This document shows, in pieces, positions 4,631 through 35,809 of a stretch of DNA of 64,000 bases. The first letter of the stretch is position 1. Each line of letters opens with the position of its first letter. Source of the DNA: a virus. Made by a program: the position numbers and the translations under genes. The stretch is taken from positions 1 through 64,000 of the IMG/VR virus record IMGVR_UViG_3300045256_000282. One strand, written 5' to 3'. Below the pieces are notes generated by a model. The model was not told the DNA's origin. It saw nothing but the letters and a program-made list of their open reading frames with translations, and searched no databases.

Positions 4631-4688
4631 GATTAATCCTACCACGCTATGATATCATTGCTATAGACTTTTGGAGGTCTTAAAAAAT

Positions 4689-16909: not shown

Positions 16910-16934
16910 TTAAATGCCTAAGGAGGGTTTACCT

Positions 16935-17744: not shown

Positions 17745-19127
17745 ATGGAACAACTGCAAGCACTCATTAAGGCGCTGGAAGCGGGTAGCTACAATGCTGC
17801 TCCTGGATCTCTGGTTCAGGGCTCAGCATTGCAGCACGAAGATCTCTCTCCAGTCATGCAAAACGTCACTTTTGGTGACGAGCACATCAAGTTGCAGAAG
17901 GCGTTGAAAATCGAAGACGCTAAATCTCAACTTGTTCAATTTAACCGTCAGCTTAGCTACGGTACCTTCGGCGGAAGCGCCCAGTATGAAGGTGGTATTG
18001 GTGAAGAAGACACCAGTGACTACATTCGTGCGGTGGTACCAATGGCCTACTACAGCACGACTCGTCGTGTCACAGTGGCTGCTAACATGATCGGTGCTTT
18101 CGACGGCGTAAAAGCTGAAGATCGCGCATCGGAAGATGCTGCTAAGAAAATCGTTGGCGATATCGAGTTGGACATCCTTAAAGGTATGTCTGATTTCTCT
18201 AACGCTGGTGTTTTCGACGGTAACCCAGGCGCAATTGCTGCCCTCCCGAACATGTTCGGTTTGGATCAGCAAGTTCGCCAATCTGACGCTCAAGCTTCTA
18301 CTCAGGATCTCATGTTCGCTGAGTACGGCTCTGACCAATCGGTCGTTCTTTCGGCTGACGGATCGCTCACGCAATCCATCATCGAAGATTCGGCTGTCCG
18401 TTCAGCAATGAACATGGGTCATGCCGATAAGTTCATGCTTGATCCGATCTCGTTGTCCGCATACAACAAGATCTCTCACGCTAAGGAACGCATCGTTCTC
18501 GCTGGCTCTCCTCAAGAAGCTAGCGGCGCTGCTCTCCGCCAACAGTGGACCAGTTCGGGCGCTGTCAGTCTTGAAGCTTCGCGCTTCATCTCTGGCAAAA
18601 CGCGTCCTGCTAAGGCCCGCGCTGGAAGCCCAGCAGCTCCTGCTGCTCCTTCTGACGCTGCAGTCTTGGCTGCTGGATCGCTGCTCGAAGCTGGTAGCTA
18701 CGTTTATTACGTAACTGCTGCTAACGAGCGTGGTGAATCACTTCGTTCTCCTTCGATTTCTAGCGCTGTAGCTTCGGCTGGCGATGCTGTTGATCTCACG
18801 ATCACGGCTGTTGCTAACGCCAAATACTACAACGTGTATCGTTCGGACGTTGGTGGTTCGGCTGCCGATGCTAAGTTCATCGGTCGCGTGAAGCAAGCCC
18901 TTGGAAACCCTGTGTTCCGTGACCTCGGCAATCGTAGCCCTGGCTCGGTCACTGGCTACCTCCTCCAGATGGACACTTGGTCACTTCATCAGTTGGCTCC
19001 TTACAGCAAGCTCAAACTTGCTGTTAGCGATCTCAGCTTGCCTGAAGCGCACTTCCGTTTCCTCTGCTTGGCTGGTCTCCAACCTCGCAAAAACGTCTTG
19101 ATCGACAATATTGACGGTCAGCTTTAA
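17745..19127 (+). CDS. Major capsid protein (Herelleviridae/SPO1-Twort-like)
   Basis: GSALQHEDL..MQNVTF resembles the Twort/K-like MCP N-terminal motif; internal Ig/Fn3-like insertion; followed by a terminator. Confidence 0.88.
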   Translation: MEQLQALIKALEAGSYNAAPGSLVQGSALQHEDLSPVMQNVTFGDEHIKLQKALKIEDAKSQLVQFNRQLSYGTFGGSAQYEGGIGEEDTSDYIRAVVPMAYYSTTRRVTVAANMIGAFDGVKAEDRASEDAAKKIVGDIELDILKGMSDFSNAGVFDGNPGAIAALPNMFGLDQQVRQSDAQASTQDLMFAEYGSDQSVVLSADGSLTQSIIEDSAVRSAMNMGHADKFMLDPISLSAYNKISHAKERIVLAGSPQEASGAALRQQWTSSGAVSLEASRFISGKTRPAKARAGSPAAPAAPSDAAVLAAGSLLEAGSYVYYVTAANERGESLRSPSISSAVASAGDAVDLTITAVANAKYYNVYRSDVGGSAADAKFIGRVKQALGNPVFRDLGNRSPGSVTGYLLQMDTWSLHQLAPYSKLKLAVSDLSLPEAHFRFLCLAGLQPRKNVLIDNIDGQL

Positions 19128-22404: not shown

Positions 22405-22565
22405 TGGCTAAAAGACGACGTGCCTCAAAACGTTCCGTAAGATGCACCCTATGCACAACCCACAGGTGGTTTGGTAACTCTAAGGGTCGTTTTAAAGCAA
22501 AAGATGAACAGCTTAAAAAGCTAAGCAAAAAAGAGATCAAAGATGTCAGACTACACAAAGAGTAA
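22404..22565 (+). CDS. Small basic CxxC protein (53 aa)
   Basis: Below the ORF-track cutoff; MAKRRRASKRSVRCTLCTTHRWFGNSKGRFK...; TGATG coupling with GGAGG upstream. Confidence 0.6.
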   Translation: MAKRRRASKRSVRCTLCTTHRWFGNSKGRFKAKDEQLKKLSKKEIKDVRLHKE

Positions 22566-23379
22566 AAGTTTTCCAACGACGACGTACCCGATACATGCCA
22601 ACGGCACCTCAGGCCTACTTAAGCGGGTTGAGCCCCTACTCACCCCAGAGAAGTTAAAAAGTCGCCATTTAAAAGGCGTACTCGAGTTGGCAAAAAGGTT
22701 TGGAATTACCTACACGAACGATGAGCTTAAGGATAGGATCAACCTAGCAACAAATCAGACCGAGATTGAGCTTGGCGTACCGATCTTTGCGGAGCAATTT
22801 AAGGAAAAGCATCCTTTTGACGTAAACTTGTACCGGGCATTTATTCATATCAGGACAGAACAAGGTCCGATCGTTTCTTTAGAAGACTTCTCCATCGTTT
22901 CCTCTGATCAACAAACAATTTTCAACGTGCCGATCCAGTGGGTTGAGACTGCTCAATTCCATCAGCGACAGATCAACGTAATTCCGCTACTCTCAAACTT
23001 CGGCGGCACTACGGTGAACACCCCAGTAGCTTCTGGCGGTATCGCATATCTTAGCATCTTACTTAACCAGTTTGGCTTTATTCCAAGTTACTGGCAGGTT
23101 ACCTATACCGCTGGAGTTTGTAAAGATCCAGGATGTGTTCCTGTTGTAGTAAATGAGCTTATCGGGACGATAGCCGCCATGGAAATGCTTAGCAGCATCG
23201 CCCCAAACAACCTACACACCTCCGTGAGCCTTTCTCAAGACGGTATCGGGCAAAGCTCAAGCAATCCTGGGCCTCAGTTATTTCAGATGAGGATGCAAGA
23301 ACTTGAAGCAAAGAAGAAAACTCTGATGGGACAAATTAAGAGGGTTTTCAGCGCCAAGTACTTTCTTTCGAACATCTAA
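22543..23379 (+). CDS. Probable head-tail adaptor/neck protein
   Basis: WQVTYTAG, SLSQDGIGQS; position in the head-neck module. Confidence 0.65.
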   Translation: MSDYTKSKSFPTTTYPIHANGTSGLLKRVEPLLTPEKLKSRHLKGVLELAKRFGITYTNDELKDRINLATNQTEIELGVPIFAEQFKEKHPFDVNLYRAFIHIRTEQGPIVSLEDFSIVSSDQQTIFNVPIQWVETAQFHQRQINVIPLLSNFGGTTVNTPVASGGIAYLSILLNQFGFIPSYWQVTYTAGVCKDPGCVPVVVNELIGTIAAMEMLSSIAPNNLHTSVSLSQDGIGQSSSNPGPQLFQMRMQELEAKKKTLMGQIKRVFSAKYFLSNI

Positions 23380-23387: not shown

Positions 23388-24446
23388 ATGAGAAACCTAG
23401 TTTCAAGACCACACATCATTCTTTCGGTAGAAAATCCGGGTTACCCCGCATCTTCTCCCGTATCTCACGATGTGGCCGTTAAGAGTCTAGAAAAATTAGG
23501 TGGTGGCAAGGTTCATACGATCAAAGGGCATTACGGGAAGCCTGAGCAGAGTATCTTGATAAGCGATCCTAGTGACGAGCAGGCGCAGTTTGCAAGGCAC
23601 CTTGCCCACTCTACCGGGCAGGAATCCCACATAGAGAGTGACGGACATAGTCACAAGATGTATTTTAATAACGGACCTAAGGCTGGCTCTATCGTACATG
23701 GTCGCGGAACTAAGTGGCACTCAAAGGCACCAAAAGACTACTTCACCACCCTTCCGTCTGGGGAAACTTTTACTCATAACTTTGAGATGGAGAAGGCTGA
23801 AAAAACACCGGGCTCAGGTGTAAAGATTAATCCTCAGCATGGAGCACAGATTGCTCAGGCATATGAAAGCATGAAACATGACCCTTCTCATCCCGATGTT
23901 AAGGCGGCGTATGGGGCACTTATAAGCGAGACTAAGGATCAGTTCAAAAAGATCTTGGGTTCTGGATTTAAGATTTCTAAGATAAAACCAGGCCAGGCAA
24001 ACCCATACAAAACTTCTAAAGATATGCATCACGATATAGAACACAACAAGCATCTTTGGTATTTTCCAACAGAGGCTGGGTTTGGTTCTAGTGATCAATC
24101 AAGTTCTGATCATCCCATGCTTGCGCCTACGGAGTTTACACACGGAGATCACAAGCTTCTTGCTAATGACATGTTCAGGATAGTACATGACATAAATGGG
24201 CACCATCTGGGTGGAAAAAGTGGATTTGGTCCAAAGGGAGAGCATGAGGCATACCTTCATCACAAGACTATGTACTCACCTATGGCAGGGAAGGCTTTGG
24301 CTACCGAAACGATGGGACAAAATAATACAGTTAATTTTGGACGTCATGGTGAAAATAATCGTAAGAATCCTTCTAAAACGATATATGCTGATCAAAAAGC
24401 TGGACTTTTGCCTGATAACATCATAAACGGAGATTGGCACAAATGA
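23388..24446 (+). CDS. Two-domain putative internal head protein: SAM-lyase/DUF3293-like N-domain plus HDxxGH metallo-domain
   Basis: ILSVENP..GHYGKPEQSILI..GQES; MEKA linker; FRIVHDINGH..GE..LATETMGQN. Confidence 0.55.
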   Translation: MRNLVSRPHIILSVENPGYPASSPVSHDVAVKSLEKLGGGKVHTIKGHYGKPEQSILISDPSDEQAQFARHLAHSTGQESHIESDGHSHKMYFNNGPKAGSIVHGRGTKWHSKAPKDYFTTLPSGETFTHNFEMEKAEKTPGSGVKINPQHGAQIAQAYESMKHDPSHPDVKAAYGALISETKDQFKKILGSGFKISKIKPGQANPYKTSKDMHHDIEHNKHLWYFPTEAGFGSSDQSSSDHPMLAPTEFTHGDHKLLANDMFRIVHDINGHHLGGKSGFGPKGEHEAYLHHKTMYSPMAGKALATETMGQNNTVNFGRHGENNRKNPSKTIYADQKAGLLPDNIINGDWHK

Positions 24447-26878
24447 AACACCGTCATTACCGTAGGATGATGTCCGATTCCTTAAAAGAGATACAGGATC
24501 TTGATAAGGCAGATGTAAAAATCTCAGAAAAAGATTTTGTTGATGAGCATAAGAAGCTTTTAGATGTACTTGAACATCCTACTAAGAAAAAACTTAAAGA
24601 AGAGGCCAAAGATCAGGGTAAGGAACTTAAAGAAGAACTTGCTAAAGCCCCAATCGCATACCACGGCAGCACCGTTCCTTTTGAGGAACATGCGAAGCCT
24701 AAGAAGGACCCTAAGAGTCAACTTAACTATGGACCCGGCATATACTACGCTACGGACCCCGAAGAAGCTTCTAGTTACGCAGAGCCTCAGATTGCTAGGA
24801 TCAATGATCACTCTAGCGCACTTACTGAGGTTCAAAAAGAGCCCGGATATAGAGAATACCGCGACTCTGTTGCATCTAAGATGGGGTTGTCTAGCTCCGT
24901 AGATACGAAACATAAAAACTGGGATAAATTTGCAGATCATATGCTTTCTTACGACAAGCAGAAGATCAACGAAAAGCTTAAGCTTGCTCCAAACGTAAGG
25001 CGATCGGATGTTCAAGTTAATAAACCTTTTGATCCCTACAACAAGAAACACGCGCTAGCAGTCTATCAGGCACTAGGCATAGAACCAGACCACTTCAGGC
25101 TTGGTCAGGAGCATAAGGCCGGTTCCAACCTTTATGGACAGATCGCAAACCACGATAAGTTTGACAATCTAAAGTGGGGAGAAAAAACTCATAAAGTAAA
25201 TCAGGCAATAAAAAGAGCTGGGTTTGACGGTATCCACGACAAGAAGCTCGGGCACATTATCGCTTTTGACCCTAAGCAGATCAAGCCAGCATATGGTGCT
25301 GCTAAAAAACCTAAGAAGCTTGCCGCATCTGAGCTTGAGAAGTCTAAAAACGTTCGCGAACAGCGAAAGAAGGTGTTCGGTACTGACGCGAATGCTCCTA
25401 GAACGTCTGAGAAGCGCATGAAGATGATGCAGATGATTAGACAATACGCTCAAAAGAAGTACGGCCTTCCTCTTGTAACAGCTTCTGGTAAGAGAGATGA
25501 GTCCGGTAAGCTTAAGGAGCAAAAAGGAATTGAGGGTCAGCCTTACGACGTATTTACTCCTAAAGGCGTGGCTCAAGAAAAGAAGCGCCTGGCTCAGATT
25601 AAAGAAAAAGGAACCAAGCGAGTAGATCCAAAACCTGACTGGCGTTCTGGTCAGCTTGAGACTCAGCCGTCTCCAGATGCTGCCGTACACGAGCTTTCAC
25701 ATCTTGACCTTGCTCCAGAGGGTATGACGGCTCCAAAATTTCAAACTGAGATGGATCGTCTTTGGGGAGATTCTCAAAGCAAATACGGTCATATGCAGCA
25801 AAAGAAGACTCGCGGTGAAATTCAGCCGATGTCTATCGAAAATCCAATACGAAGAGAAATGGGCCTACCCGCTAATAAGCAAACAAAACCAGTTACTGCT
25901 AACCAGTCAGTTCTTGATGACCCTACTGGAAAAGAAAAACGTTTTGTTGAAGGTAAAGATGCTAACGGCAAAAAAGCTTTTTACGATCGTCAATCTAGGC
26001 TTCAAAATCAAGATACTAAAGACAGACGACAGCAGATTCAAGAAGGAAGCTTAAAATTTCATCCTGAAAAGGGATGGCAACAAGCTTCGGACACCAATGC
26101 CCTTATTAATTTGAGGGGTAGAGGTTTGAAGGAAGAGGCTGCAAACAGACTTAAGGCAAGGCTTGGATTTCAGTCCCAACCAAAGAAGTTGGCGGCAAGT
26201 GAAGATTTAAAAAAAGAACAGTGGGAAAGAAAAAGAACAGGATCTTCTCTTAACCCTTTGCACGGCGTAATATCGCCGGAAGGAAAGTTTTATCCTATGA
26301 ATGCAGATGAGATGCATTCTAACAAGATAATTCAAGCAAGTCTCCCTCCTTACGCCAAGGTTAGCTATACGCCTGGCGAGCTTGAAAACGAAGTAAACAA
26401 AAAGATGGGCGAAGGATGGATTTCTGTTGGAACCGCTGGGGAACCTAGCTTCATCGGACACTCTTCTGTATTAAGCAACCCAAGACATCCCGCCACCGCC
26501 GCACTTAGGGGTCTTATTCGTGAAGCTCAAAATGATCCAAAAAACACCGCTGGTTTTTGGACTGGTCATGTTGAAGTTTCTCATAGTGACAAGAAGCCCA
26601 TCAAGGGTGCAGAAACTCTTGAGCACGCCCCTCATGTGGGTTATGTAAGTGCTGATCACTTTGTCAGGCACGGCACGTTTAAGCCACACAAAGATTTGGG
26701 ACGATCCGAAATTGAAAAAAGCTGGTCGGCAAAGCTTGCAGCGAAATACAAGGCCCAAAGACCTCAAACTCCTCAAGAAATTAAAGAATCAAAAGAAAAA
26801 CACAAGAAGGCAATGGAAGCTGCACTGGCTGCTATAGACAAGATCAAAAAGCCAACTAAGCCTGGAGGTCAGAAATGA
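24434..26878 (+). CDS. Polyvalent multi-domain protein: ART-like domain, HExxH zincin, unknown domain
   Basis: AYHGS..GPGIYYATDPEEASSYA..GFDGI..AFDPKQIK; AVHELSH..ENPIRREMGLP; repeated PKKLAASE linker. Confidence 0.65.
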   Translation: MAQMKHRHYRRMMSDSLKEIQDLDKADVKISEKDFVDEHKKLLDVLEHPTKKKLKEEAKDQGKELKEELAKAPIAYHGSTVPFEEHAKPKKDPKSQLNYGPGIYYATDPEEASSYAEPQIARINDHSSALTEVQKEPGYREYRDSVASKMGLSSSVDTKHKNWDKFADHMLSYDKQKINEKLKLAPNVRRSDVQVNKPFDPYNKKHALAVYQALGIEPDHFRLGQEHKAGSNLYGQIANHDKFDNLKWGEKTHKVNQAIKRAGFDGIHDKKLGHIIAFDPKQIKPAYGAAKKPKKLAASELEKSKNVREQRKKVFGTDANAPRTSEKRMKMMQMIRQYAQKKYGLPLVTASGKRDESGKLKEQKGIEGQPYDVFTPKGVAQEKKRLAQIKEKGTKRVDPKPDWRSGQLETQPSPDAAVHELSHLDLAPEGMTAPKFQTEMDRLWGDSQSKYGHMQQKKTRGEIQPMSIENPIRREMGLPANKQTKPVTANQSVLDDPTGKEKRFVEGKDANGKKAFYDRQSRLQNQDTKDRRQQIQEGSLKFHPEKGWQQASDTNALINLRGRGLKEEAANRLKARLGFQSQPKKLAASEDLKKEQWERKRTGSSLNPLHGVISPEGKFYPMNADEMHSNKIIQASLPPYAKVSYTPGELENEVNKKMGEGWISVGTAGEPSFIGHSSVLSNPRHPATAALRGLIREAQNDPKNTAGFWTGHVEVSHSDKKPIKGAETLEHAPHVGYVSADHFVRHGTFKPHKDLGRSEIEKSWSAKLAAKYKAQRPQTPQEIKESKEKHKKAMEAALAAIDKIKKPTKPGGQK

Positions 26879-27426
26879 TCTGGGGAAGACTAAAAAAGAA
26901 CATTGAAGATAAGTTGATACCGGCAGCTCACAAGGAAAAGCTTTTTAAACAAAGAGAAAAATTCTCCAAGTCTGCAAAAGATGAGTCTTTAAAGCTTGAA
27001 CACTATTCTCATGAGCAAAACTTAAAAGAGATCGACCCCAAGAAGATGGGCTCTGGGGCAGACGCTCAAACAAAAAGAGGTGGCCCTATGGAGCACCCTC
27101 ATAGCTTTTTTTATAGAAGCGGCCATCCCCTACCCGAAGAAGATTCTCATATTCATCGTCAGGCTAGTAGCAAGTATCATGTTGAGTTGCCTTCAGATGT
27201 AAAACTTTACGACCTATCTACAGATCCTCATAGACTCAGAGAAAAACTAATACAAGAAACAAAGCATAGACAGGTAAACCCTGGGCACCCAACACCAGAC
27301 GAGCTTCATGAAAGACTCAAAAGCCACGGCTATCATGGGTTTTACTATTCTAAACATCCCTCAATGTCCAGCGTAGTTGCTCTATATGACAAGGTTCCAG
27401 TAAAATCTGAGGAGAAGAAAAAATGA
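26875..27426 (+). CDS. Putative ADP-ribosyltransferase-fold protein
   Basis: LEHYS..IDPKKMGSG..SFFY..GYHGFY, the same motif order as the upstream ART-like domain. Confidence 0.45.
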   Translation: MIWGRLKKNIEDKLIPAAHKEKLFKQREKFSKSAKDESLKLEHYSHEQNLKEIDPKKMGSGADAQTKRGGPMEHPHSFFYRSGHPLPEEDSHIHRQASSKYHVELPSDVKLYDLSTDPHRLREKLIQETKHRQVNPGHPTPDELHERLKSHGYHGFYYSKHPSMSSVVALYDKVPVKSEEKKK

Positions 27427-28529
27427 TGGATTCTCTAAAGAAATCTCATGAAAAGAACATGGCTCACAATGGCCTAGCGTTGTTGTACCCGGTCTCTGTT
27501 ATGGGAAGACACATGAGATCTAACGGGATACCACACCATGTTACGGTGAAGTTTTTTGATAAGCCAGAGATTACCGCAGATGATGCTCATGACTACGCTC
27601 AAAACGAAAATTTAAAAACTCCAAACCCTTACGACATTATGGTTACTCCTAAGGTTTTTAAAAATAGATTTGGCGAAGACGTACATGTTCTTGCTCTTGA
27701 AGGGTCGGGAATTGATCACGTAAAACAAGCAAACGCAAATGGCTCCCATCTTGGCCAGCCCGTAAATTACAAGTTTACCCCTCACATAAGTGTGGACAAA
27801 GAAACTCACGATAGGGTTGCCTCTATGGGAAGGCCAGTAAAAGCCAGTGAGCTGGGTATTAAGTTTGGCCCACCAGAACTTAGACATGGTCCCAGAGTGG
27901 TTGCCACCTATAATAAGATCGAAAAGAATATGTTTGGTATTGAGATTGAGGATGTTGAACTTAAAAAGTCCTTAAAACATACGGCTGCCGCGACCGCCGC
28001 GCTGATGGGTCTTATGGGTAATCCAAACATGGCTGGCTCTATTTCTGAAAAACCGCCTGTGGTTGCCCAACCTCAGGCAAACAAGGGCAGGATGCTTAGC
28101 GCTATAGCTGCTGTAGAATCTAGCTCAGGTAAAGATACACATCACGAGCCTTTGCATGGTATGCATCAAGGTGAAAGCGCTTATGGAAAGTACGGACTTA
28201 CGCCGATTACGGTTAGGGAAACCGTAGGTCGACACCCGGATCTTAAAAGAGCACACAGAGGAGTTTTATCTTTAAAAGGCAAGGATTTTCAATCCTACAT
28301 GCAAAAAAATCCAAAACTAGAGGAAGAGGTGGCCTCACGCCATTACGACAGATTAAACAAGCTCTTCCACGGAGACCCTGGAAAAATGGGTTATGCCTGG
28401 TTAAATGGGATAACTGGGGGTCTTAGAGCCGCCAAACAAGGGTTTGATTTTGACAACCATTGGCATGTTAAAAAGATCAAAAATGCGTATCAAACTATTG
28501 AAAACACTAAGAATTCTCAAAAAAAGTAA
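27423..28529 (+). CDS. 2H phosphodiesterase (Acb1-like) fused to a lysozyme-like muramidase domain
   Basis: HVTV and PHISV ~80 aa apart; LKKS linker; AIAAVESSSG..AYGKYGL. Confidence 0.7.
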   Translation: MMDSLKKSHEKNMAHNGLALLYPVSVMGRHMRSNGIPHHVTVKFFDKPEITADDAHDYAQNENLKTPNPYDIMVTPKVFKNRFGEDVHVLALEGSGIDHVKQANANGSHLGQPVNYKFTPHISVDKETHDRVASMGRPVKASELGIKFGPPELRHGPRVVATYNKIEKNMFGIEIEDVELKKSLKHTAAATAALMGLMGNPNMAGSISEKPPVVAQPQANKGRMLSAIAAVESSSGKDTHHEPLHGMHQGESAYGKYGLTPITVRETVGRHPDLKRAHRGVLSLKGKDFQSYMQKNPKLEEEVASRHYDRLNKLFHGDPGKMGYAWLNGITGGLRAAKQGFDFDNHWHVKKIKNAYQTIENTKNSQKK

Positions 28530-28535
28530 TCTTAA
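28528..28535 (+). promoter_or_regulatory. Putative late promoter AATCTTnA
   Basis: AATCTTAA upstream of 28551. Confidence 0.6.
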
Positions 28536-28550
28536 CCTATTGGAGACGAT

Positions 28551-29105
28551 ATGGAACTAAAACCTAGTGAAATTGAAGCGATCGAAGAAATTGGTGAATT
28601 AGACGGAAGCCCGGTCAAGATGATCAGAACCATCGGTGGTTTTTGGATCGCCGTTGGTAAGCCTAAAGGCAAAAAAGACCAAGAGGCGCTTGGTGCAGGA
28701 AGTCATCCGGCCATCGTGAAGTACAACGTTGAAAAGCAATTTTCCGCTTTCCAGCCCACCTTAGCTAAAAGCGAGCTAACTGGGTCCTCTGAGAGCGTAA
28801 CTGGCTATACCGAGCTTCTACCTCAAGAGATGCGAAAAAACGGATATGAGATGTTCTCTCTTACAAAAAGTAATGAGATCGAATACGTCCTTACTAAGCA
28901 TGGCGCTCAAGTTCATGTATTTAAAGCCGAAGTGCAAACTGATAAGATCAAGTTTGACAAAGCTGCAAAACCACTCCCGAGCAACTTAAAAGGGTTTTCA
29001 AAAGCAGCTACGACCGTAGCCACCCACAAAGCAAAAGAGCTTGGTAAAGAATTTATCGAATATGACAACGTAAAGTTTCCTATCAAGAAGTTGTTGAAAG
29101 GTTAA
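28551..29105 (+). CDS. Hypothetical head protein
   Basis: 184 aa; LAKSE and LTKSN motifs. Confidence 0.75.
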   Translation: MELKPSEIEAIEEIGELDGSPVKMIRTIGGFWIAVGKPKGKKDQEALGAGSHPAIVKYNVEKQFSAFQPTLAKSELTGSSESVTGYTELLPQEMRKNGYEMFSLTKSNEIEYVLTKHGAQVHVFKAEVQTDKIKFDKAAKPLPSNLKGFSKAATTVATHKAKELGKEFIEYDNVKFPIKKLLKG

Positions 29106-29106
29106 G

Positions 29107-29304
29107 ATGCCAGATACAGCAAGGAAGCTTAAATTGGCTTCAAAACTTAAAGAATCAAAGAATACTAAGCCCGCAGAAAAAATGTGCAAGGAAGATAAGA
29201 AGGCACTGGCTTGCTGGGTAGGAAAAAGACTGCTTGAAAGTCAGGAAAAGATAGAAAAAACTTTGAATGAGATGCGGTTGATTTGCGAGAGGGCAAAAAA
29301 GTAA
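29107..29304 (+). CDS. Hypothetical protein
   Basis: 65 aa, tightly packed, TAATG overlap downstream. Confidence 0.6.
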   Translation: MPDTARKLKLASKLKESKNTKPAEKMCKEDKKALACWVGKRLLESQEKIEKTLNEMRLICERAKK

Positions 29305-30242
29305 TGTCAAAAAGAAAGCCCAAGGGAACACAACTAGATGCCATCAATAGGGGGAGTCAGCCTTTTCAGGTTACTTTTGATCTGTTGAAACAGGATCAGT
29401 TCGTAAACTCCTTAGGGGTTGACTTTATCCACTATAAGGCTATGCCCTCCCCTATAGGACTGAAGGATAGAGGAGATTATCGTCGAAGTGACGGTTTGGA
29501 CACCATAAGCTCAAACGGCATGCTTTACTTTAAAGCTGGGTGTTTTACGGCGACCATGGTTGATAATTCTAAGTCTCAAAAAGCCTCAGAAGGTGCCTTA
29601 CTAGATTACTCAACTTCTAGACTTATAATGCCTAGATTTTACAATACCCAAGAAGAGCAGTCAGACGGCAAAAGAATTTACATGGCCCCTGGCGATAGAG
29701 TCTACATCGCAGACCCGGCAGCCGACATCCTAGTTCCTAACTATCAACGAATGGACTATGAGCCGGACACAGACAACGTTCCCATGTTCCCTATAGCGCA
29801 GATAGAGTTTGTTGAAGATAGTCGCGGAATAATCTACCAAGAAGGTCGGGATTTTGAGATAACCTGCCAAGGAAACATCCGGTGGATACCTTCTGGGCAA
29901 AACCCAGGAATCGACCCTGACACTAAGAAGGGTCGAGTTTATTCGACCAGATACCTCTATAAAGCTTTTTGGTACGTAGTAGCCATTCCCAAAGAGGTGA
30001 GGGTTACGAATGTAACAAACGGGGACGAAAGAGTTCCAGAACGAATGGCCTATCATGCCGTAGTTCAAAGAGAATACATATACCTTAACGTTAACCGTGG
30101 CCAAAACAGCGATGGAAGCACTGGCGCGGGAGACGTAAAGACTCAAGATCAAAAGAGAATCGTAAAGAAACCTAAATCGGGTATCGACCCAGGAGGCCCT
30201 AGCATAAAGGTCAACATGGACGATATCGAGCAGGAATCTTGA
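29304..30242 (+). CDS. Probable neck/head-closure protein
   Basis: Position and beta-rich content (YQEGRDFEI..GNIRW..YSTRYLY); probable ATG at 29304. Confidence 0.55.
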   Translation: MSKRKPKGTQLDAINRGSQPFQVTFDLLKQDQFVNSLGVDFIHYKAMPSPIGLKDRGDYRRSDGLDTISSNGMLYFKAGCFTATMVDNSKSQKASEGALLDYSTSRLIMPRFYNTQEEQSDGKRIYMAPGDRVYIADPAADILVPNYQRMDYEPDTDNVPMFPIAQIEFVEDSRGIIYQEGRDFEITCQGNIRWIPSGQNPGIDPDTKKGRVYSTRYLYKAFWYVVAIPKEVRVTNVTNGDERVPERMAYHAVVQREYIYLNVNRGQNSDGSTGAGDVKTQDQKRIVKKPKSGIDPGGPSIKVNMDDIEQES

Positions 30243-30268
30243 TATAGTACGTAACGAAAGGGCTTAAA

Positions 30269-30724
30269 ATGACAGTTCCAGCAAATAAGAAGATTCGTCA
30301 GATGAAGGGGTCGACCGTAGAGGACGTCCTTAACGCAGCCAGCCTTACCTTTAATAGGGCCTCTGGTGGACAAAAGAACCTTGGGGTTGGACCTCATCTC
30401 AAGCCCCTTCTGGTAGACCCTGCCACGAACACCTATTCAACGGACGCTACCACGGCTAGAACGTTGAGGCCTGGTGTCCTGCTAGCTATCTTCAACAAGG
30501 GTAGCTCTGTATACTCTGTTACATTAGGAAGCGATACCTCGGTTGCTGCTCTTGCAGTGGGTGTGACCAACTCTAACGGAGAAGTTGGCATTCCATGTAA
30601 GCCCGGTGATTGGACCTATCTCTCCACGTTTGATAAGCGTACGGTCATCACTAACAACAACAACCTGGTTGTTTTTGTTGTCGAAGACGATACTTACATC
30701 GTAGACGAAAACCCTAGCCGATAA
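30269..30724 (+). CDS. Hypothetical virion protein
   Basis: 151 aa; AATCTTGA at 30235. Confidence 0.7.
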   Translation: MTVPANKKIRQMKGSTVEDVLNAASLTFNRASGGQKNLGVGPHLKPLLVDPATNTYSTDATTARTLRPGVLLAIFNKGSSVYSVTLGSDTSVAALAVGVTNSNGEVGIPCKPGDWTYLSTFDKRTVITNNNNLVVFVVEDDTYIVDENPSR

Positions 30725-30733
30725 GGAATTCTG

Positions 30734-31642
30734 ATGAAGATCACAGCTTCTGCAGAACAGTTCCTTTCTAAGGCGCTGGGCCAAGATGGCCTAGATGCAC
30801 TGCAGAAGTCTGAGCTTTTTAAGCTAAAGGCCAATAAGGTCGTTCCTATAGACGAGATCAAGACTGCTATGCAGATCGTACCTCGGACTGTAATCACACT
30901 ACTCCACAAAGAACTTGGCGCGATGAAGATCGGTGAAGGCAAGGACGTAGTTCTTCCAGTTCAACCAGAAGCCATCTTACATGTAACCAAATACGACAAC
31001 GACGTTTATAGCGGGGATATCCATAGACCTGGAAACGTTATGGCTAAGTTTCAAGATCGATCACTCCCTGGCGTTGGTTTGATCATCATGTCTACTTTTG
31101 AGCTTTACGATGTATCAGACCTAGCATCGGCAGCTCCAAGCTCCGTGCCTAGCTTAGAAGAGGCTAACGTTCAAAAGATCATTGATGAAAGAATGGGCCT
31201 ACGAGATCTTGTAAGACAAGTAGTTGACCAAAGAATTACGGAAAGAGAAGCGATTGACAGCATCATAAGGATGAGGTTAACTCAAGCTATGGCCGAAGCT
31301 ACTCAAAAAAAAACAGAAAAGCCTGAAGAGGCACCTATGGAATCTAAAAAACCTACGAGTAAGCTTAAAGAGTTTATTGAACGAAGAGCTAGGAAAGCTC
31401 CTAAAGAATTTCAGATCAGCATGGCTAAGAACGAAACCGTTGTATGTGAAGATTGTAAAAAAGAGATCTTCACCAAAGGCGCGTTCTCTGGCTGCATCTG
31501 CTATGGTGACGATCGAAACAACAAGATCTTCATTACTAAGAATGAGAACGGATTTACTATGCGGTTTCCTCGTAGTTGGGATGTGGAAAACGTCCAGATG
31601 CTTTTGGAAACTTTGCGAGATAAGAACAGGGGTTCCAAATGA
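30734..31642 (+). CDS. Hypothetical head protein with C-terminal CxxC...CxC zinc-ribbon-like motif
   Basis: LSKAL, LQKSE, MAKNE motifs; CEDC..GCIC. Confidence 0.7.
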   Translation: MKITASAEQFLSKALGQDGLDALQKSELFKLKANKVVPIDEIKTAMQIVPRTVITLLHKELGAMKIGEGKDVVLPVQPEAILHVTKYDNDVYSGDIHRPGNVMAKFQDRSLPGVGLIIMSTFELYDVSDLASAAPSSVPSLEEANVQKIIDERMGLRDLVRQVVDQRITEREAIDSIIRMRLTQAMAEATQKKTEKPEEAPMESKKPTSKLKEFIERRARKAPKEFQISMAKNETVVCEDCKKEIFTKGAFSGCICYGDDRNNKIFITKNENGFTMRFPRSWDVENVQMLLETLRDKNRGSK

Positions 31643-33114
31643 ACAGATTATTCGTAGCTTTTGATGGCGATAATATGGGCTCACAAGTTGGTCAGGCTGT
31701 CCTTATGGACGATGCTCAACAACTTCACGAGATCTCTCGTCGAATTGATAGCGCTGGACGAGCGATACAGGATTGGGTGGAATCTAACGGAGGCCAGATG
31801 GTCTCGGTTGGTGGGGATGAAGGAACTTTTGTTATCGATCCTTCTATGGAAGAACATCTTGAGGAGTTGAGAGGAGTTTACCAACAGATCAGTGGTGGTA
31901 CCGTAACGTTTGGCGTAGGATACTCTCTAAGTCAAGCCGGTAAGGCTTTGATGGCTGGAAAACTTATGGGAAAAGATATTCTGGTTAGGTATGACGACCA
32001 GGTAGACCACATCCTTTCTGATGCGCATGATCAGGTTCAAACTGGTGGTGGAAGTCCCGAAGCTCAGAAACAAGATGAGCATTATCTTAGCCACGTTGTG
32101 CTAGGCGATGCTGGAAACGGCGAAGAGGATGTTAGCCAAGAATCTGCTGATGAATACGACATGGCTCCAACCTCTAATTCTCCAGATGACCAAGAAATTA
32201 CTCCTGAAGGCGCTGCTGCCGCACAAGAGATGGTAGATGACGCAGCAAATTCAGAAGGCTGCAATTGTCCTGCTTGCCAAGAGCGCCATGCTATGGAGGC
32301 TCAGGGTCAGGGGCCGGAAGAAGAAGCAACTGAGGGTTGCGATTGTCCTGCTTGCCAAGAGCGTCATGCTATGGAGAGTGGTGCTGAAGAGCCTATGCCA
32401 GAGATGGCTACTCAGAATGAAGAAGATCTTCCAGAACAAGACTCTATGCAGATGATTCCAGATGCTCAAGCTGAGGGTTCGGACCTTCCTCCTATGCAGA
32501 TGCCAGAATCTCAAGAAGATCCTCAAAGCGCTATGGGAGAAATGGGCGAAGAAGATGCTATCGAGATTCCAGAGAACGAGTCTTTAGACGAGCAAAAAGA
32601 TCCAGAAGAGATGGTTGCTGCCGCAGTAGGGCCTAATGAAGATCCTGAGCAAGAGGGCGCTGTTCCTGAAGAAAACATGTCAGAAGACGGCTTTCCAGGC
32701 GCAATTCCTGGTGAAGGTGAAGAACCCGTAAATCAAGAAGATCTAGAAGAGATGCAAGATCCTTCAAACGAACAGATGCCTCCCCAACAAGACATGGGAG
32801 CCATGGGTGAATCCCAGGAACAACCTGGGGACCTAGACCTATTGTCCGAACTTTTATCAGATGCAGGATCTACTGATGAGCTTAAACAAAGAATTGCAGC
32901 TATACTTGAAAAGTTTAAAGCGAACAGGGATTCAATCATCTCGATGAAAGATCAGAACCCCGAGATGTACCAATCGATCATACTCATGCTTAAGCAGATG
33001 ATCGACATGGCGAGACATCTAGCCCCATCATCGCCAGAGGAAGATATGCCTCAAGATGAGCAGTCTGTTCCAGAGGAAGCTTCTCAGGAGGAAGCACCTC
33101 TCCCAAAACAGTAG
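31639..33114 (+). CDS. mCpol (minimal CRISPR polymerase / GGDEF-like) nucleotide cyclase domain plus long acidic tail
   Basis: FVAFDGDNMG..VGGDEG..TVTFGVGYSLSQAGKALMAGKLMGKD in the first ~120 aa. Confidence 0.8.
   Translation: MNRLFVAFDGDNMGSQVGQAVLMDDAQQLHEISRRIDSAGRAIQDWVESNGGQMVSVGGDEGTFVIDPSMEEHLEELRGVYQQISGGTVTFGVGYSLSQAGKALMAGKLMGKDILVRYDDQVDHILSDAHDQVQTGGGSPEAQKQDEHYLSHVVLGDAGNGEEDVSQESADEYDMAPTSNSPDDQEITPEGAAAAQEMVDDAANSEGCNCPACQERHAMEAQGQGPEEEATEGCDCPACQERHAMESGAEEPMPEMATQNEEDLPEQDSMQMIPDAQAEGSDLPPMQMPESQEDPQSAMGEMGEEDAIEIPENESLDEQKDPEEMVAAAVGPNEDPEQEGAVPEENMSEDGFPGAIPGEGEEPVNQEDLEEMQDPSNEQMPPQQDMGAMGESQEQPGDLDLLSELLSDAGSTDELKQRIAAILEKFKANRDSIISMKDQNPEMYQSIILMLKQMIDMARHLAPSSPEEDMPQDEQSVPEEASQEEAPLPKQ
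32254..32376 (+). repeat. Two 45-bp direct repeats encoding EGCxCPACQERHAME
   Basis: Copies at 32254-32298 and 32332-32376. Confidence 0.9.
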
Positions 33115-33314
33115 GGTCGGTAGAAAAAGGCGGGAAACTGCCGACCAAGCAAACAACTCGCCACGTAGCAAGAACTAGACAACCCGAAGGTGCTATTAAC
33201 CGTAAGGGTTTTGAAAAAGTCATCGATAACGAGACTGGCAAAACTAGATGGGTAGATCGTAAGAAGCCTGTTGCCCTTGACCTACAGGGCGATCCTACTC
33301 ACGAGAGATTCTAA
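33102..33314 (+). other. Programmed -1 ribosomal frameshift signal and 70-codon -1 frame extension of the mCpol protein
   Basis: C CCA AAA (33102-33108), 6-nt spacer, stem 33115-33123/33138-33146, loop GGCGGG pairing with CTCGCC at 33157-33162; -1 frame open to TAA 33312-33314, which overlaps the next ATG. Confidence 0.8.
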
Positions 33315-34066
33315 TGAACCTTAAGTTTTTTGTTAACGCAGATGATATAGCCAACGAGATGAAGGCTTTTAAAGAAGAGGCTAAGCAGGCGATAGAAGAG
33401 TCTGTTAAGCAACTATCTGCGATGACGCACGCTAAGGTTGTTGAGCTTGCACAAGAAAAGTTAAAAAGTACACGCAAGATCTATACCGACAATTTGGATT
33501 ATCAAGAGCTTGTCCCAGGCTTGTGGGTTGTTAGTTTAGATCAGCCAGCGTTGTGGATCGAAGAAGGCCGTAAATCTGGGGACATGACACAAGACCTGCT
33601 CAAGACTGGCGCTCACATAGCTAAAGATGGAAGTCGATATAAGGCGATTCCTTTTGATCACGGTAAGCCTCCATCTCAGATGGACCCCTTCAGCAGAAAC
33701 TTGGTGGCAAAGATCAAGTCTGAGCTTAAGAAAGCAAACATACCCTTTAAGAAGCTTGAGCTTAACGCAGATGGAAGTCCGAGGATAGGTCGGCTTCATA
33801 CCATGAACATCTCTAGTCCTCACCCAAGCTCGAGGGCTAGTCATCCGGCACTTTCTGGTTTGACCATATATCAAACAAAAGGTGCAAATGGCAAGGTTCG
33901 TCGCGATATAATGACCTTTAGAATGGTAAGCGATAAACATAAAGGCTCTAAGTGGATTCATCCTGGAAGAGACGCCGAGGGCTTCTTTGAAAAAGCTTTA
34001 CAGTGGGCCGAAGATCAGTGGGAAAGAGAGATCCTACCTCAGATCATGGCGAGGTTTGACAAATGA
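33314..34066 (+). CDS. Probable neck/tail-completion protein (HK97 gp10-like)
   Basis: WIEEG, FRMVSDK..SKWIHPG; position. Confidence 0.6.
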   Translation: MNLKFFVNADDIANEMKAFKEEAKQAIEESVKQLSAMTHAKVVELAQEKLKSTRKIYTDNLDYQELVPGLWVVSLDQPALWIEEGRKSGDMTQDLLKTGAHIAKDGSRYKAIPFDHGKPPSQMDPFSRNLVAKIKSELKKANIPFKKLELNADGSPRIGRLHTMNISSPHPSSRASHPALSGLTIYQTKGANGKVRRDIMTFRMVSDKHKGSKWIHPGRDAEGFFEKALQWAEDQWEREILPQIMARFDK

Positions 34067-35052
34067 TATTTGCTGGCGATGTCATCATCAAAGCGGCTAT
34101 AGAGCAAGGTCTTGAAGACATGCGAAAAAACGTGTGGCTTTTAGATGACGTTCTTTCTCAGTTTGTAAAAGAAGAGTCTTTAAAGAACAAGTATGGCCAA
34201 AAAGAGATTGATGCCGCCAAAGAATGGTTCTTGAACAACAACATTTCTGTCTATCTGCAACATCGTATTGATAAGGACCAGCTTCCTGCCGTCATCATTG
34301 GTCTTGGATACTCGAATGAGTTAGATGAGATGAAGCATATGGGAGACCTATCTACCGAGGTAGAAACCCTGATGCCCTCTCAGATCGGAAAACCAATACC
34401 CTACGTCGTTAAGCCCTTCACCCCTACTTCGTACGACGATTCTGAAGGTACCGTAGGATTTCCAAAAGAACTAAATATCCAGCCAATCGCTCCTGGCATG
34501 ATTCTTGTCGATCCAGATACAGGGAATGGCTATGAGATTAAGGCCATACTGCCTGGAAGAAAGATCCAGATCGAGCCTAACTTAGACTTAGATTCTACTA
34601 GGTTGGCTGTTGTTCCTAAATATCAGTTTTATAGGGTTAGAAGAGAACACAGCTTTTTTGCTGAAAGTTACACGATCGGTTGCCACGTCCATGGGGATGT
34701 TGCCCCCCTTCTTTGGCTCCATGCGATAGTGGCATACATTCTTCTACGTTATCGAGAAAGCCTACTTGAAGGCAGATGCTTTAGCCAAAGCAAGATCTCA
34801 AGCTCCGACCTTATGCCAAACCAGGATATGAACGTCCCTGGAGGGGAAAACGTGTATTCAAGGTATATAACCCTTACGGGTCAGGTGGAGAACTCGTGGT
34901 TAAAAACCCCTAAAAGGGTTATCGAGTCTGCGATTTTGGAAAATGAGCCGGACAAAGAAGAGGGTTTTAAGGGTGGAATCAAGATCATAAGCCAACAAGC
35001 CCCTGATTTTTTAGACTCTGAAGAAGAGCCCTGGACCACAATCGATGAGTAA
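34063..35052 (+). CDS. Probable tail terminator/neck protein
   Basis: LPAVIIGL, YSRYITL; position before sheath. Confidence 0.5.
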   Translation: MIFAGDVIIKAAIEQGLEDMRKNVWLLDDVLSQFVKEESLKNKYGQKEIDAAKEWFLNNNISVYLQHRIDKDQLPAVIIGLGYSNELDEMKHMGDLSTEVETLMPSQIGKPIPYVVKPFTPTSYDDSEGTVGFPKELNIQPIAPGMILVDPDTGNGYEIKAILPGRKIQIEPNLDLDSTRLAVVPKYQFYRVRREHSFFAESYTIGCHVHGDVAPLLWLHAIVAYILLRYRESLLEGRCFSQSKISSSDLMPNQDMNVPGGENVYSRYITLTGQVENSWLKTPKRVIESAILENEPDKEEGFKGGIKIISQQAPDFLDSEEEPWTTIDE

Positions 35053-35069
35053 GAGGTAATCTTTAGCAT

Positions 35070-35462
35070 ATGACCGTCAAGGATAATTTAAAGAAAGCGT
35101 TACATAAGGCTATCTTAAAGGCTTACCAAAATGGTAAGAAGTCTAAGGTCGTAGCCGACGTTATACACGATATAAGAGATCCTAACAACGTTCCTCAGGT
35201 ACCCGCTAAAGATCTTCCGGCTCCTGCTGAGGGCGTTTTAAACAAAGACATATCTCTATCAGAAATTCATCAACAAAAACAAGCTAATGCCATGGCTAAG
35301 CTAGGCCAGGCCCCAAAGGCACCAAGTCAATCTGGCGCGTTTAAGCAGGCCTCTATGGGCGCAAGTCCTAAGATGCCTAAAAGTTCAAAGCCTTTACAAT
35401 CCTTCATGCAAAAAAAGGAAGAAAAAAGGAACCTTAGCAAGAAATCAGCGAAAGGTATATAA
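35070..35462 (+). CDS. Basic hypothetical protein (possible internal head protein)
   Basis: 130 aa; LKKA, LHKA motifs; AATCTTTA at 35058. Confidence 0.65.
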   Translation: MTVKDNLKKALHKAILKAYQNGKKSKVVADVIHDIRDPNNVPQVPAKDLPAPAEGVLNKDISLSEIHQQKQANAMAKLGQAPKAPSQSGAFKQASMGASPKMPKSSKPLQSFMQKKEEKRNLSKKSAKGI

Positions 35463-35524
35463 CTTATTGATTTTTAAAGGCTTTTTTTGAGCCCAGAATC
35501 TTTATTAGGTTAGGAGAGTACAAC

Positions 35525-35809
35525 GTGAGCAAAAAAGAGTATACCGCAAAAGAAGCTGCCGTCGCCCTTCTTGACAAGATCAAGGCAAAGGCGCAGGTAC
35601 GAATGGCAAAGTCTGAGCCTGTAAAAGGCGAGAGTTTACAAAAAGCAAGCCCTGAGAACCAAAACATGGCCCAGGTTGCTGATATTAAAGCCCCACAGGC
35701 GGAAGCTCCTAAGGCTAACGAGAAGATGATTCCGAAGCAAAAAGAGCTTAAGCTTAAAAAGTTTATGGAACATATGACGGCTAAACGGAGCAAAAAACAT
35801 GGGTCGTAA
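35525..35809 (+). CDS. Basic hypothetical protein (possible internal head protein)
   Basis: GTG start after AGGAG; MAKSE, LQKAS; AATCTTTA at 35497. Confidence 0.65.
   Translation: MSKKEYTAKEAAVALLDKIKAKAQVRMAKSEPVKGESLQKASPENQNMAQVADIKAPQAEAPKANEKMIPKQKELKLKKFMEHMTAKRSKKHGS

Follow-up and report, generated by a model that had tools for sequence, protein, structure and literature searches.

Swappable Enzyme Modules Probably Cut by the Capsid-Maturation Protease before Injection in a Relative of Myxococcus Phage Mx1

Gene Content of the Inserted Block

The source genome, 149 kb long, is that of a myophage, a relative of Myxococcus phage Mx1, and the window (the whole stretch of 64,000 nucleotides analysed) is its structural arm, with a Herelleviridae-type head (major capsid protein (MCP), scaffold and prohead protease). 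Within this arm, a block of genes is inserted, flanked by head-tail adaptor and neck genes. The 5′ border is formed by the head-to-tail adaptor gene (22543–23379, + strand), which matched the Nachito adaptor with a probability of 96.4% in hhalign. The genes of the block described below are all on the + strand. The cargo-like part of the cassette looks to be 23388–29105 only, that is, the first five genes, whereas the initial annotation had extended it to 35809. The six domain calls of the initial annotation (SAM-lyase, ART, zincin, 2H, muramidase and mCpol) were upheld at least at the level of a fold or a lead.

The first cargo candidate (352 aa, 23388–24446) comprises a SAM-lyase fold (aa 1–132), a linker with MEK|AE (aa 134–138; the bar marks the predicted cut) and an uncatalogued hub domain (aa 143–352) that is widespread, with 4694 representative clusters. 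The fold was matched by Foldseek to the T3 SAM lyase 8bb1 (E 1.7e-4) and gave a VIA Z of 10.6 against 7ock, and the AF2 model of the protein (pLDDT 92) has its sole dip at aa 131–140, where MEK|AE sits. The second candidate (814 aa, 24434–26878), which probably starts in fact at Met12, opens with a leader that terminates in LDK|AD, followed by ART-PolyVal (aa 69–293), KKLAASE (nt 25313–25333), a zincin-like HExxH module (aa 301–583), a further KKLAASE (nt 26183–26203) and an uncharacterised third module (aa 591–814). The ART-PolyVal segment attains the Pfam gathering score; only the invariant HExxH and a weak lead from a language model back the zincin call. In relatives, homology blocks to this protein start and stop at its linkers. 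The third candidate (183 aa, 26875–27426) bears a leader that terminates in FSK|SA (aa 30), and its module is found in relatives as the C-terminal part of polyproteins, where LAASE or MGKSE comes before it.

The fourth candidate (368 aa, 27423–28529) combines a leader with LKK|SH (aa 5–9), a 2H phosphodiesterase (aa 17–165) and a lytic transglycosylase (aa 215–368), separated by a disordered linker (aa 168–207) that holds LKKS. Its AF2 model has a pLDDT of 86, falling below 50 in the linker, and Foldseek matches include 2H phosphodiesterases, Acb1 among them, and Slt; the two folds carry invariant His and Glu-Ser residues. Among 44 homologues, the linker, which is variable in length and otherwise unconserved, contains LAASE or KSE in 28, and the leader motif is present in 26, the variable N-terminal leader ending in Phi-x-K-[AS]-E. 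The fifth gene (28551–29105) encodes a conserved protein of 184 aa in which Phi-x-K|S-E lies near aa 71, a motif kept in 8/8 homologues, including that of Mx1, at an overall identity of 40–50%.

The remaining genes up to 35809 had also been placed in the cargo cassette. Three genes of 319, 151 and 302 aa (29283–31642) are conserved and unshuffled, and their motif matches are unconserved; in LQKSE of the 302-aa protein, for example, Ser is replaced by F, I or V in relatives. In the product of the next gene (31639–33114), mCpol (aa 5–118), a clear match to Pfam PF18182 (55 bits), is accompanied by a disordered region of acidic character and by a C-terminal helix that is conserved. Its placement in a polyprotein was rejected: it is a stand-alone, syntenic and conserved gene with homologues at the corresponding position in every relative, weakly so in Mx1, and the motif is absent from the mCpol protein of the source phage and of eight close relatives. 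The 250-aa neck protein and the 329-aa tail terminator (33314–35052) matched Nachito neck genes in hhalign (97.1% and 71.9%), with the Pfam family SP10_terminator supporting the latter call; 33314–34066 and 34063–35052 were thus discarded as cargo, being structural genes common to Herelleviridae. Lastly, 35070–35809 encodes two small proteins rich in Lys, of 130 and 94 aa, whose homologues in relatives have a Cys-containing module that is also present in the protease tail, and Phi-x-K-[AS]-E is kept in 5/7 members of the 94-aa family.

Distribution of the Motif

All motif instances listed in the initial annotation were recovered by a regex scan: MEKA in the 352-aa protein; LDKA, LAKA, LEKS and IEKS in the 814-aa protein; LKKS twice in the 368-aa protein; LAKS in the 184-aa protein; LSKA and LQKS in the 302-aa protein; MAKS and LQKA in the 94-aa protein; LAKSE twice, VMKSE, IKKSE, VKKSE and LKKSE in the scaffold; LEKS in the portal; and LIKA in the MCP. 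Enrichment was evaluated over the whole 149-kb genome against residue shuffles of each protein, which keep its composition, and the enrichment persisted. The broad motif [LMIV].K[SA] was found 23 times in the head module against 10.5 expected (p = 0.001) and 21 times in the cassette against 12.7 (p = 0.016; only 1.7-fold), with no enrichment in tail genes (4 observed, 6.0 expected) or the rest of the genome (87 and 91.5). An acidic residue after the motif sharpened this contrast: [LMIV].K[SA][ED] gave 12 observed against 1.54 expected in the head and 6 against 1.69 in the cassette (p = 0.01), and was not enriched in the tail (0 against 0.57) or the rest (10 against 11.4), the [ED] refinement having been picked after inspection of the scaffold. 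Six control motifs, permuted or neighbouring (with R in place of K, T/G in place of S/A, reversed or shifted forms, among others), showed no enrichment. An independent replicate on 91 kb of Mx1 gave observed and expected counts of 10 and 1.3 for the cassette, 6 and 1.06 for the head and 1 and 3.6 for the rest, so that enrichment was limited to the head module and cassette in both genomes.

The initial annotation had taken Lys before Ser or Ala as the shared linker signal and had missed KK-[LM]-A-A-S-E, the commonest linker motif, which has Ala in that position and takes the place of Phi-x-K-S-E at homologous linkers. In the cassette, [LMI]A[AK]SE, a variant likewise defined post hoc, was observed 4 times against 0.04 expected. 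The KK[LM]AASE codons differ synonymously and both Ser codon families (TCN and AGY) are used, which argues that the signal is kept at the peptide level and against a DNA-level joint.

Prohead Protease, Scaffold and Capsid Protein

The prohead protease domain (15676–16230, − strand) is aa 1–185 of a 650-aa protein (14278–16230). It matched the annotated protease of the Herelleviridae phage Nachito (hhalign probability 96.3%, E 1.5e-9), and phrog_1028, ‘head maturation protease’, matches the 650-aa protein and three homologues. The protease tail (14278–15675, − strand) has MFK|SEE directly after the domain (aa 186–191), LTK|SE (aa 429), a copy of the MCP N-arm (aa 378–400) and a C-terminal DUF6321. 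In 59/119 homologues, Phi-x-K-[SA]-[ED] comes after the protease domain. The Lys/Glu-rich scaffold candidate (16914–17732, + strand) contains 8 such sites and, if cut at all of them, would yield computed fragments of 9–70 aa; the scaffolds of relative L007, Mx1 and Nachito have the same multi-site pattern, and the motif pattern is alike in the scaffold, MCP and protease tail of Nachito. In the MCP, the leader and predicted maturation site LIK9|A10-LEAG (17745–17780, + strand) align with VVK24|S25 of the phi812 type, whose capsid protein is deposited as residues 25–463 (439 aa), with S25 as first residue after VVK24. This deposited N-terminus anchors the K|S cleavage rule invoked in the initial annotation, and the site is kept in L007, Mx1, SPO1 gp6.1 and Nachito.

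Shuffling and Protease Fusions in Relatives

Domain swapping at the motifs, named earlier as a check, was seen in nine IMG/VR relatives, in which modules recombine at motif-bearing linkers. In at least 16 cases, one protein unites the protease domain with the zincin-like module, and further fusions link the protease to GNAT, VTC, L5_gp82, FlgM or DUF6321; in these, motif sites lie on either side of the Pfam domains. In relatives L003 and L007, the protease gene is the first of the cargo operon. Additionally, a 1479-aa protein of Mx1 has four sites between its GNAT, ART-PolyVal, NUDIX and transglycosylase-like domains.

Interpretation and Rival Explanations

From the observed motif statistics, the conservation in otherwise variable leaders and linkers, the module shuffling, the protease fusions and the domain folds, we infer packaging, cleavage, ejection or co-injection and the host targets. 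Leaders and linkers of the enzyme modules bear the same short signal as the scaffold and capsid proteins, and the modules, swappable between proteins, are probably cut inside the head by the maturation protease before injection. The whole reading, polyvalent cargo cut by the capsid-maturation protease in the head and then injected with the DNA, is judged fairly likely. Cargo would enter the procapsid through short N-terminal leaders or, in many relatives, as a direct C-terminal fusion to the prohead protease. During maturation, the protease would cleave Phi-x-[K/A]|[S/A]-[E/D] on the C-terminal side of its third residue, removing leaders, parting modules, reducing the scaffold to small peptides, freeing itself from its tail and taking about 9 residues off the MCP. 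The released enzymes would exit with the DNA; the transglycosylase may open the peptidoglycan, and host defences may be blunted before any phage gene is expressed, by SAM depletion, degradation of cyclic or 2′-5′ nucleotide signals, ADP-ribosylation and proteolysis.

Several observations were counted against this reading. The 352-aa protein is without an N-terminal leader; about half of the broad-motif cassette matches are unconserved in relatives; the mCpol, 319-, 151- and 302-aa proteins are without conserved sites; AASE also occurs within the folded protease domain (aa 14–18), where it cannot be a site; and it is unusual for one protease to tolerate Lys as well as Ala ahead of the cut.

Among the alternatives, it is improbable that the motif is a true protease site in head proteins and the cassette enzymes are not head cargo, being instead late cytoplasmic or neck- or tail-associated proteins, with the transglycosylase a tail lysin and the motif copies unused or serving another purpose. 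The block does lie between adaptor and neck genes, outside the head operon of the source genome, the broad-motif enrichment in the cassette is modest, and transglycosylases are generally common in tail proteins, so presence in the virion does not by itself place a protein inside the head. However, the same modules are fused in relatives to the prohead protease, an internal procapsid component, it is exactly the disordered linkers and leaders that retain the motif, and ART-PolyVal and the polyvalent architecture favour head cargo. It is distinctly unlikely that the embedded zincin-like metallopeptidase, and not the prohead protease, frees the modules, the likeness to scaffold sites being coincidental. 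The invariant HExxH module of the 814-aa protein, its fusion to the protease in the relatives mentioned above and the ascription of polyvalent processing to such metallopeptidase domains by Iyer et al. (PMC5512222) speak for it, but Mx1 polyproteins have the motif at every domain border without a zincin-type HExxH module, and the same motif fills scaffolds and marks the MCP bond aligned with the known K|S maturation site. Very unlikely is a motif that is no cleavage site (a docking or chaperone-binding motif, a DNA-level recombination joint or a side effect of helical, Lys/Glu-rich composition): helical proteins rich in Lys and Glu are numerous among the carriers, a GroEL-like gene is nearby and shuffling requires joints, yet the shuffles preserve composition, permuted motifs are unenriched, the linker codons vary synonymously and the aligned phi812-type site is a deposited mature N-terminus.

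Comparison with Known Systems

The general concept is already known from polyvalent proteins and from the processed head proteins of the T4 and phiKZ type. Polyvalent proteins of phages and conjugative elements were described by Iyer, Burroughs, Anand, de Souza and Aravind in 2017, with ART-PolyVal as the signature domain of the class and 2H, lysozyme/transglycosylase and metallopeptidase domains as typical (PMC5512222). The content of the cassette is considered cargo-like because its ART-PolyVal, 2H, transglycosylase and zincin-like domains fit this class. Shared features are unrelated enzyme domains in one polypeptide, a position beside virion genes, extensive mosaic shuffling and a predicted delivery with the DNA for early counter-defence (PMC5512222), as well as ART-PolyVal, 2H, lysozyme/transglycosylase, zincin-like peptidase, GNAT and NUDIX modules. 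In the published account, processing is by embedded metallopeptidases, no linker signal is described and the usual head anchor is MuF (PMC5512222), whereas in the source phage leaders and linkers carry a defined motif that corresponds to the maturation sites of capsid and scaffold, MuF is a separate, intein-interrupted gene, and the carrier in many Mx1-like relatives is the prohead protease itself.

Similarly, the T4 internal proteins and Alt are processed by gp21, and the ejection proteins of phiKZ and SPN3US by gp175 and gp245; there too, the propeptides of head-internal proteins share a short motif with the scaffold and MCP (PMC9026906, PMC10052503), the prohead protease cuts both the cargo and its own tail, and the cargo is ejected with the DNA. 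These proteases are experimentally proven to cut after Glu (L/I-x-E; S/A/G-x-E), whereas the Herelleviridae-type protease of the source phage is predicted to cut multi-enzyme polyproteins after Lys/Ala and before Ser/Ala-Glu. Herelleviridae (phi812, SPO1 and Nachito) have a homologous MCP (phmmer E 1.9e-19 to SPO1 gp6.1) with an aligned N-terminal Phi-x-K|S/A site, homologous protease, adaptor and neck genes, a multi-site scaffold and a protease tail that mimics the MCP N-arm. Nachito has about six genes from the MCP to the sheath, and the motif is not enriched in its 866-aa ART-like protein, while a 10-kb insertion of cargo genes and fusions of the protease with cargo are features of the Mx1-like clade. 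The Dar system of phage P1, whose proteins are unrelated in sequence to the cargo candidates, is alike in that it places anti-defence proteins in the assembling head, as is proposed for the source phage. In HK97, the protease tail, a C-terminal encapsidation signal, reportedly mediates incorporation, as found by Duda et al. in 2013.

Motif enrichment in head and cassette proteins

The motif [LMIV]-x-K-[SA], on which the initial annotation had founded a single cassette of head-packaged effectors (23388-35809), was evaluated across the whole genome, in a crude ORF set, by shuffling the residues within each protein so that the Lys content stayed constant. All the instances quoted in that annotation were located in the proteins named there, and the enrichment persisted after the Lys correction, with 23 sites observed and 10.5 expected in the head module (p 0.001), and 21 observed and 12.7 expected in the cassette (p 0.016). 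The tail genes contained 4 sites (6.0 expected) and the rest of the genome 87 (91.5 expected). Nearly all the motif sites of the scaffold candidate were followed by Glu or Asp and, with this residue included, the counts were 12 in the head module, 6 in the cassette, 0 in the tail and 10 in the rest (1.54, 1.69, 0.57 and 11.4 expected, respectively), while six permuted or neighbouring control motifs showed no enrichment in the same shuffle test. Since the acidic refinement had been chosen after inspection of the scaffold, the test was rerun on 91 kb of Myxococcus phage Mx1, where the acidic motif was found 10 times in the cassette (1.3 expected), 6 times in the head module (1.06) and once in the rest (3.6). 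A composition artefact as the source of the motif was ruled out by the shuffles and the permuted controls; the signal is real and limited to head and cassette proteins.

Linkers, leaders and module joints

A second signal, overlooked in the initial annotation, marks the joints between modules, which are mostly (P)KK-[LM]-A-A-S-E in nine IMG/VR relatives with 58-68% identity in the 319-aa protein. The 814-aa protein contains two copies of KK-[LM]-A-A-S-E (aa 294-300 and 584-590), both coinciding exactly with the ends of homology blocks to relatives, and [LMI]A[AK]SE was observed 4 times in the cassette (0.04 expected) and zero times in the rest of the genome. In the family of the 368-aa protein (44 homologues, 32-66% identity), the linker between the two domains differs in both length and sequence, and is of the LAASE type in 21, of the Phi-x-K-S-E type (Phi being L, M, I or V) in 7 and with only K-[S/T]-E in three others. 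Because homologous linkers carry either the LAASE or the Phi-x-K-S-E type, Lys and Ala appear interchangeable before Ser. A variable N-terminal leader with Phi-x-K-[AS]-[ED] at its end is present in 26 of the 44 homologues, and a leader with the motif was also found in the 814- and 183-aa proteins; the 352-aa protein has none. The reading of these joints as sites of recombination at the DNA level was ruled out by the seven linker codons, which vary synonymously among the copies, including TCN versus AGY for Ser, and therefore point to selection on the peptide. The 814-, 183- and 368-aa genes overlap one another by four bases, and the 'polyprotein' of the relatives is thus read as partly split here into separate genes, at positions that are linkers elsewhere.

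Genomic context of the cargo candidates

The window covers the first 64 kb of one contig of 149,068 bp, for which Mx1 is the closest catalogued phage (MCP identity 53.8%) and the Herelleviridae are more distant relatives in the major capsid protein (MCP), with a phmmer E value of 1.9e-19 to SPO1 gp6.1 and matches also to the phi812 MCP. The gene map, built from PHROGs, Pfam and hhalign, opens with a GroEL-like chaperonin gene (4671-6455 (+); phrog_5725, E 3e-86), immediately upstream of the large terminase (TerL), and the portal. These are followed by a MuF/SPP1-gp7-like minor head protein (11713-13659 (+)), split at about aa 221-613 by an intein that contains a LAGLIDADG endonuclease. The 255-aa homologue of this head protein in the relative L003 is without the intein and aligns to aa 1-220 and 614-647. 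Then come an M15 peptidase, the long-tailed 650-aa prohead protease, which is encoded on the minus strand, a 152-aa protein, the Lys/Glu-rich scaffold candidate and the MCP. After the MCP, three genes are inserted: a ParB/HNH-like endonuclease homologue, directly behind it (508 aa, homing-endonuclease/ParB-like, 19244-20770 (+); phrog_3339, E 3e-91), with related copies elsewhere in the relatives L003, L004 and L008, a 97-aa ORF and a thymidylate kinase homologue. Between them and the head-tail adaptor (22543-23379), which directly precedes the block under study, is a 128-aa gene that has a homologue in Mx1; beyond the block the map continues with a neck gene (33314-34066), a tail terminator gene (34063-35052), genes for three small proteins, and the sheath and tube genes.

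The proposal that 23388-35809 forms one cargo cassette was not borne out, as the genes at 33314-34066 and 34063-35052 proved similar to neck genes of Herelleviridae, with a match also to the SP10 terminator family. In the Herelleviridae phage Nachito only about six genes separate the MCP from the sheath, and 23388-33114 is therefore considered an insertion between the adaptor and neck genes. The block with the cargo candidates (23388-29105) lies in a virion gene context, flanked by the adaptor on one side and by the neck, terminator and sheath genes on the other. Megablast of the cassette found no match among phage records, and Pfam and PHROGs gave almost no matches to the whole cassette proteins, ART-PolyVal being detected by a segment-wise scan. 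The families of the 184-, 319-, 151-, 302- and 90-aa proteins had no match in hhalign comparisons with the Nachito neck genes.

Domains of the cargo candidates

The model of the 352-aa protein has a pLDDT of 92, with a sole dip at aa 131-140, at MEK↓AE (the arrow marks the predicted cut). As modelled, its N-terminal domain has the SAM-lyase fold, with a Foldseek E value of 1.7e-4 to the T3 SAM lyase 8bb1 and a VIA Z score of 10.6 to 7ock (rmsd 3.7 over 120 residues), the next unrelated row having 5.2; the Pfam S-AdoMet_lyase match is below the cut-off (E 0.028, and 7.6e-5 in the Mx1 homologue). The second domain (aa 143-352; 23814-24443 (+)), here called the hub domain, is highly conserved, has members in 4694 representative clusters, frequently with 55-70% identity, and sits within phage proteins of up to 3700 residues, with invariant His, Asp and Glu. 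The motif occurs within 30 residues before it in 18 of 65 hub-bearing proteins. No Pfam family was found for this domain, Foldseek and VIA yielded no solved fold, their rows being dominated by the N-terminal domain, and the ESM Atlas returned unnamed viral clusters only.

The 814-aa protein consists of a leader ending LDK↓AD, ART-PolyVal (36.0 bits as a segment, Pfam cut-off 31.2), a module with an invariant HExxH and a third module. The HExxH module had no Pfam or PDB-profile match, and its nearest language-model neighbours, which serve as a lead only, are zinc-protease effectors and M85/M91 peptidases (score 0.86). The 183-aa protein corresponds to a module that in relatives is preceded by LAASE or MGKSE linkers and here stands alone. 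In the 184-aa protein, which is conserved, Phi-x-K↓S-E at about residue 71 is kept in 8 of 8 homologues, and this protein may be a processed head component.

The model of the 368-aa protein has a pLDDT of 86, falling below 50 in the linker (aa 168-207). Its N-terminal domain carries two H-x-T/S motifs (HVT and HIS) on a 2H fold, as in 2H phosphoesterases, with H39 and H121 invariant in 44 sequences and Foldseek matches to the phage phosphodiesterase 9q2g, Acb1 (7t26), VP3, LigT and the poxvirus cGAMP phosphodiesterase. The C-terminal domain has the Glu-Ser pair and goose-type lysozyme fold of family-1 lytic transglycosylases; E232-S233 is invariant in the 44 sequences, and Slt (6fbt) and Cj0843 (6cf9) were matched in Foldseek with a probability of 1.00 but an E value of only 0.03. 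A conserved Ala-rich hydrophobic stretch (aa 185-205 of 27423-28529 (+)) opens the transglycosylase module, after the linker motif, and may be a membrane anchor.

Prohead protease, scaffold and MCP site

Residues 1-185 of the 650-aa protein (14278-16230 (-)) matched the annotated Nachito protease (hhalign 96.3%, E 1.5e-9), with a match also to phrog_1028. In Nachito, the scaffold carries five Phi-x-K-S strings, the MCP has LSK↓ALEAG at its N-terminus, and the protease tail contains MSK↓SLEAG with a copy of the MCP N-terminal arm behind it. Because literature searches found no explicit published statement of a Herelleviridae K↓S site, the MCP site was anchored on deposited sequences, using PDB chain lengths: the phi812-type MCP is present as a 463-residue entry and as a 439-residue chain (residues 25-463), which begins at Ser25, after V-V-K24, a bond that aligns with K9↓A10 of the MCP of this phage. 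The predicted substrates thus share a short motif with the MCP and scaffold maturation sites, as seen in the enrichment in two phages and the alignment to K24↓S25.

In this phage MFK↓SEE stands directly behind the protease domain, a place where the motif was found in 59 of 119 homologues, and the scaffold candidate (16914-17732 (+)) has eight motif sites, at which cutting would give fragments of 9-70 residues. Together with the arm copy in the tail, these sites fit a protease that would cut its own tail and fragment the scaffold, predicted from sequence and likened to T4 gp21 and SPN3US gp245, which cut their own tail and reduce the scaffold (PMC9026906, PMC10052503). The arm copy, A-A-P-G-x-L-x-x-G-x-A-L-x-x-E-D-L, lies at aa 378-400 of the protease here, and copies are also present in the proteases of Mx1 (L001, 13002-16721, aa 234-270) and Nachito (L012, 5416-6156). 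Kept from Herelleviridae to the Mx1-like clade, it may be the means by which the protease docks in the procapsid. Profile searches against PDB sequences with the zincin-like, ART and protease alignments gave nothing useful.

Evidence for putative head cargo and proposed delivery

The support for the modules as putative head cargo is wholly comparative. In the relatives L003 and L007 a single protein unites the protease domain with both the N-arm mimic and the zincin-like module, and the protease gene is the first of the cargo operon; at least 16 database proteins were common to the searches with the protease and the 814-aa protein. Other protease fusions carry GNAT, VTC, L5_gp82, FlgM, DUF5661 or DUF6321, and motif strings lie on either side of these Pfam domains. 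In Mx1, whose genome announcement is PMC10720576, the protease protein has 1239 aa, and a 1479-aa protein contains GNAT (156-271), ART-PolyVal (649-896), NUDIX (923-1033) and transglycosylase-like (1058-1210) domains, separated by motif sites at 129, 606, 1061 and 1251. The zincin-type HExxH module is absent from Mx1, which argues that the serine protease, and not an embedded metallopeptidase, reads the sites. At least two domains of unlike activity are present in each of the 814-, 352- and 368-aa proteins, an architecture in line with the polyvalent proteins described by Iyer et al. 2017 (PMC5512222), and the proposed mechanism resembles the processing of internal head proteins in T4 and phiKZ-type phages. 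New are the readable leader and linker signal that matches the capsid maturation site, the predicted acceptance of either Lys or Ala ahead of the cut and the apparent use of the prohead protease as a fusion carrier.

The initial annotation had proposed that the enzymes are packed in the head as polyproteins, cut at the motif during maturation and co-injected with the DNA, and for the cargo candidates the full mechanism of cleavage, packaging and ejection is judged somewhat more likely than not. Held more tentatively is the possibility that Mx1-like phages run a natural plug-and-play delivery, in which any module with a short leader or linker ending Phi-x-[K/A]↓S-E, or fused behind the prohead protease, would enter the procapsid, be released at maturation and then be injected, so that counter-defence would be active before the first phage transcript. 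The SAM lyase would act against SAM-dependent restriction and BREX, the Acb1-like 2H phosphodiesterase against cyclic-nucleotide signalling, and the ADP-ribosyltransferase and metalloprotease would be further delivered counter-defence enzymes. If true, such anti-defence activities would here be seen for the first time as cargo of the virion, carried by the maturation protease, and it would be shown that known classes of anti-defence enzymes can be delivered ready-made. The delivery would also explain the disassembly of polyvalent proteins without an embedded peptidase, and would provide a readable sequence rule by which phage proteins that are packaged and injected could be spotted across a large clade of uncultivated phages, in which the protease family numbers at least 316 proteins that differ widely in length. 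Leaders, linkers and protease fusions built on this logic could then be used to load foreign proteins into phage heads. Since the host of Mx1 is Myxococcus xanthus, the prediction is directly testable.

Genes outside the cargo

None of the 319-, 151- and 302-aa proteins, all of them conserved, is ever shuffled, and the motif matches within them are not conserved. The mCpol domain, which had been counted among the cargo polyproteins, is present (PF18182, 55 bits) but belongs to a stand-alone protein that is syntenic in all relatives, with a weak counterpart at this place in Mx1, and the motif is absent from it in this phage and eight close relatives. This protein (31639-33314 (+) region), which has an acidic disordered region, keeps its position across the clade, acidic residues making up 23-30% here and in the eight close relatives and 13% in the Mx1 homologue. 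The gene is followed by a 200-nt gap, where the relatives L004, L008 and L009 have an ORF of 61-64 aa. Small Lys-rich proteins are encoded just before the sheath gene (35070-35809 (+)), and their homologues in the relatives L005-L010 gain a Cys-containing C-W-E-G-Y...G-S-C module, which is also found in the protease tail of this phage (aa 527-554).
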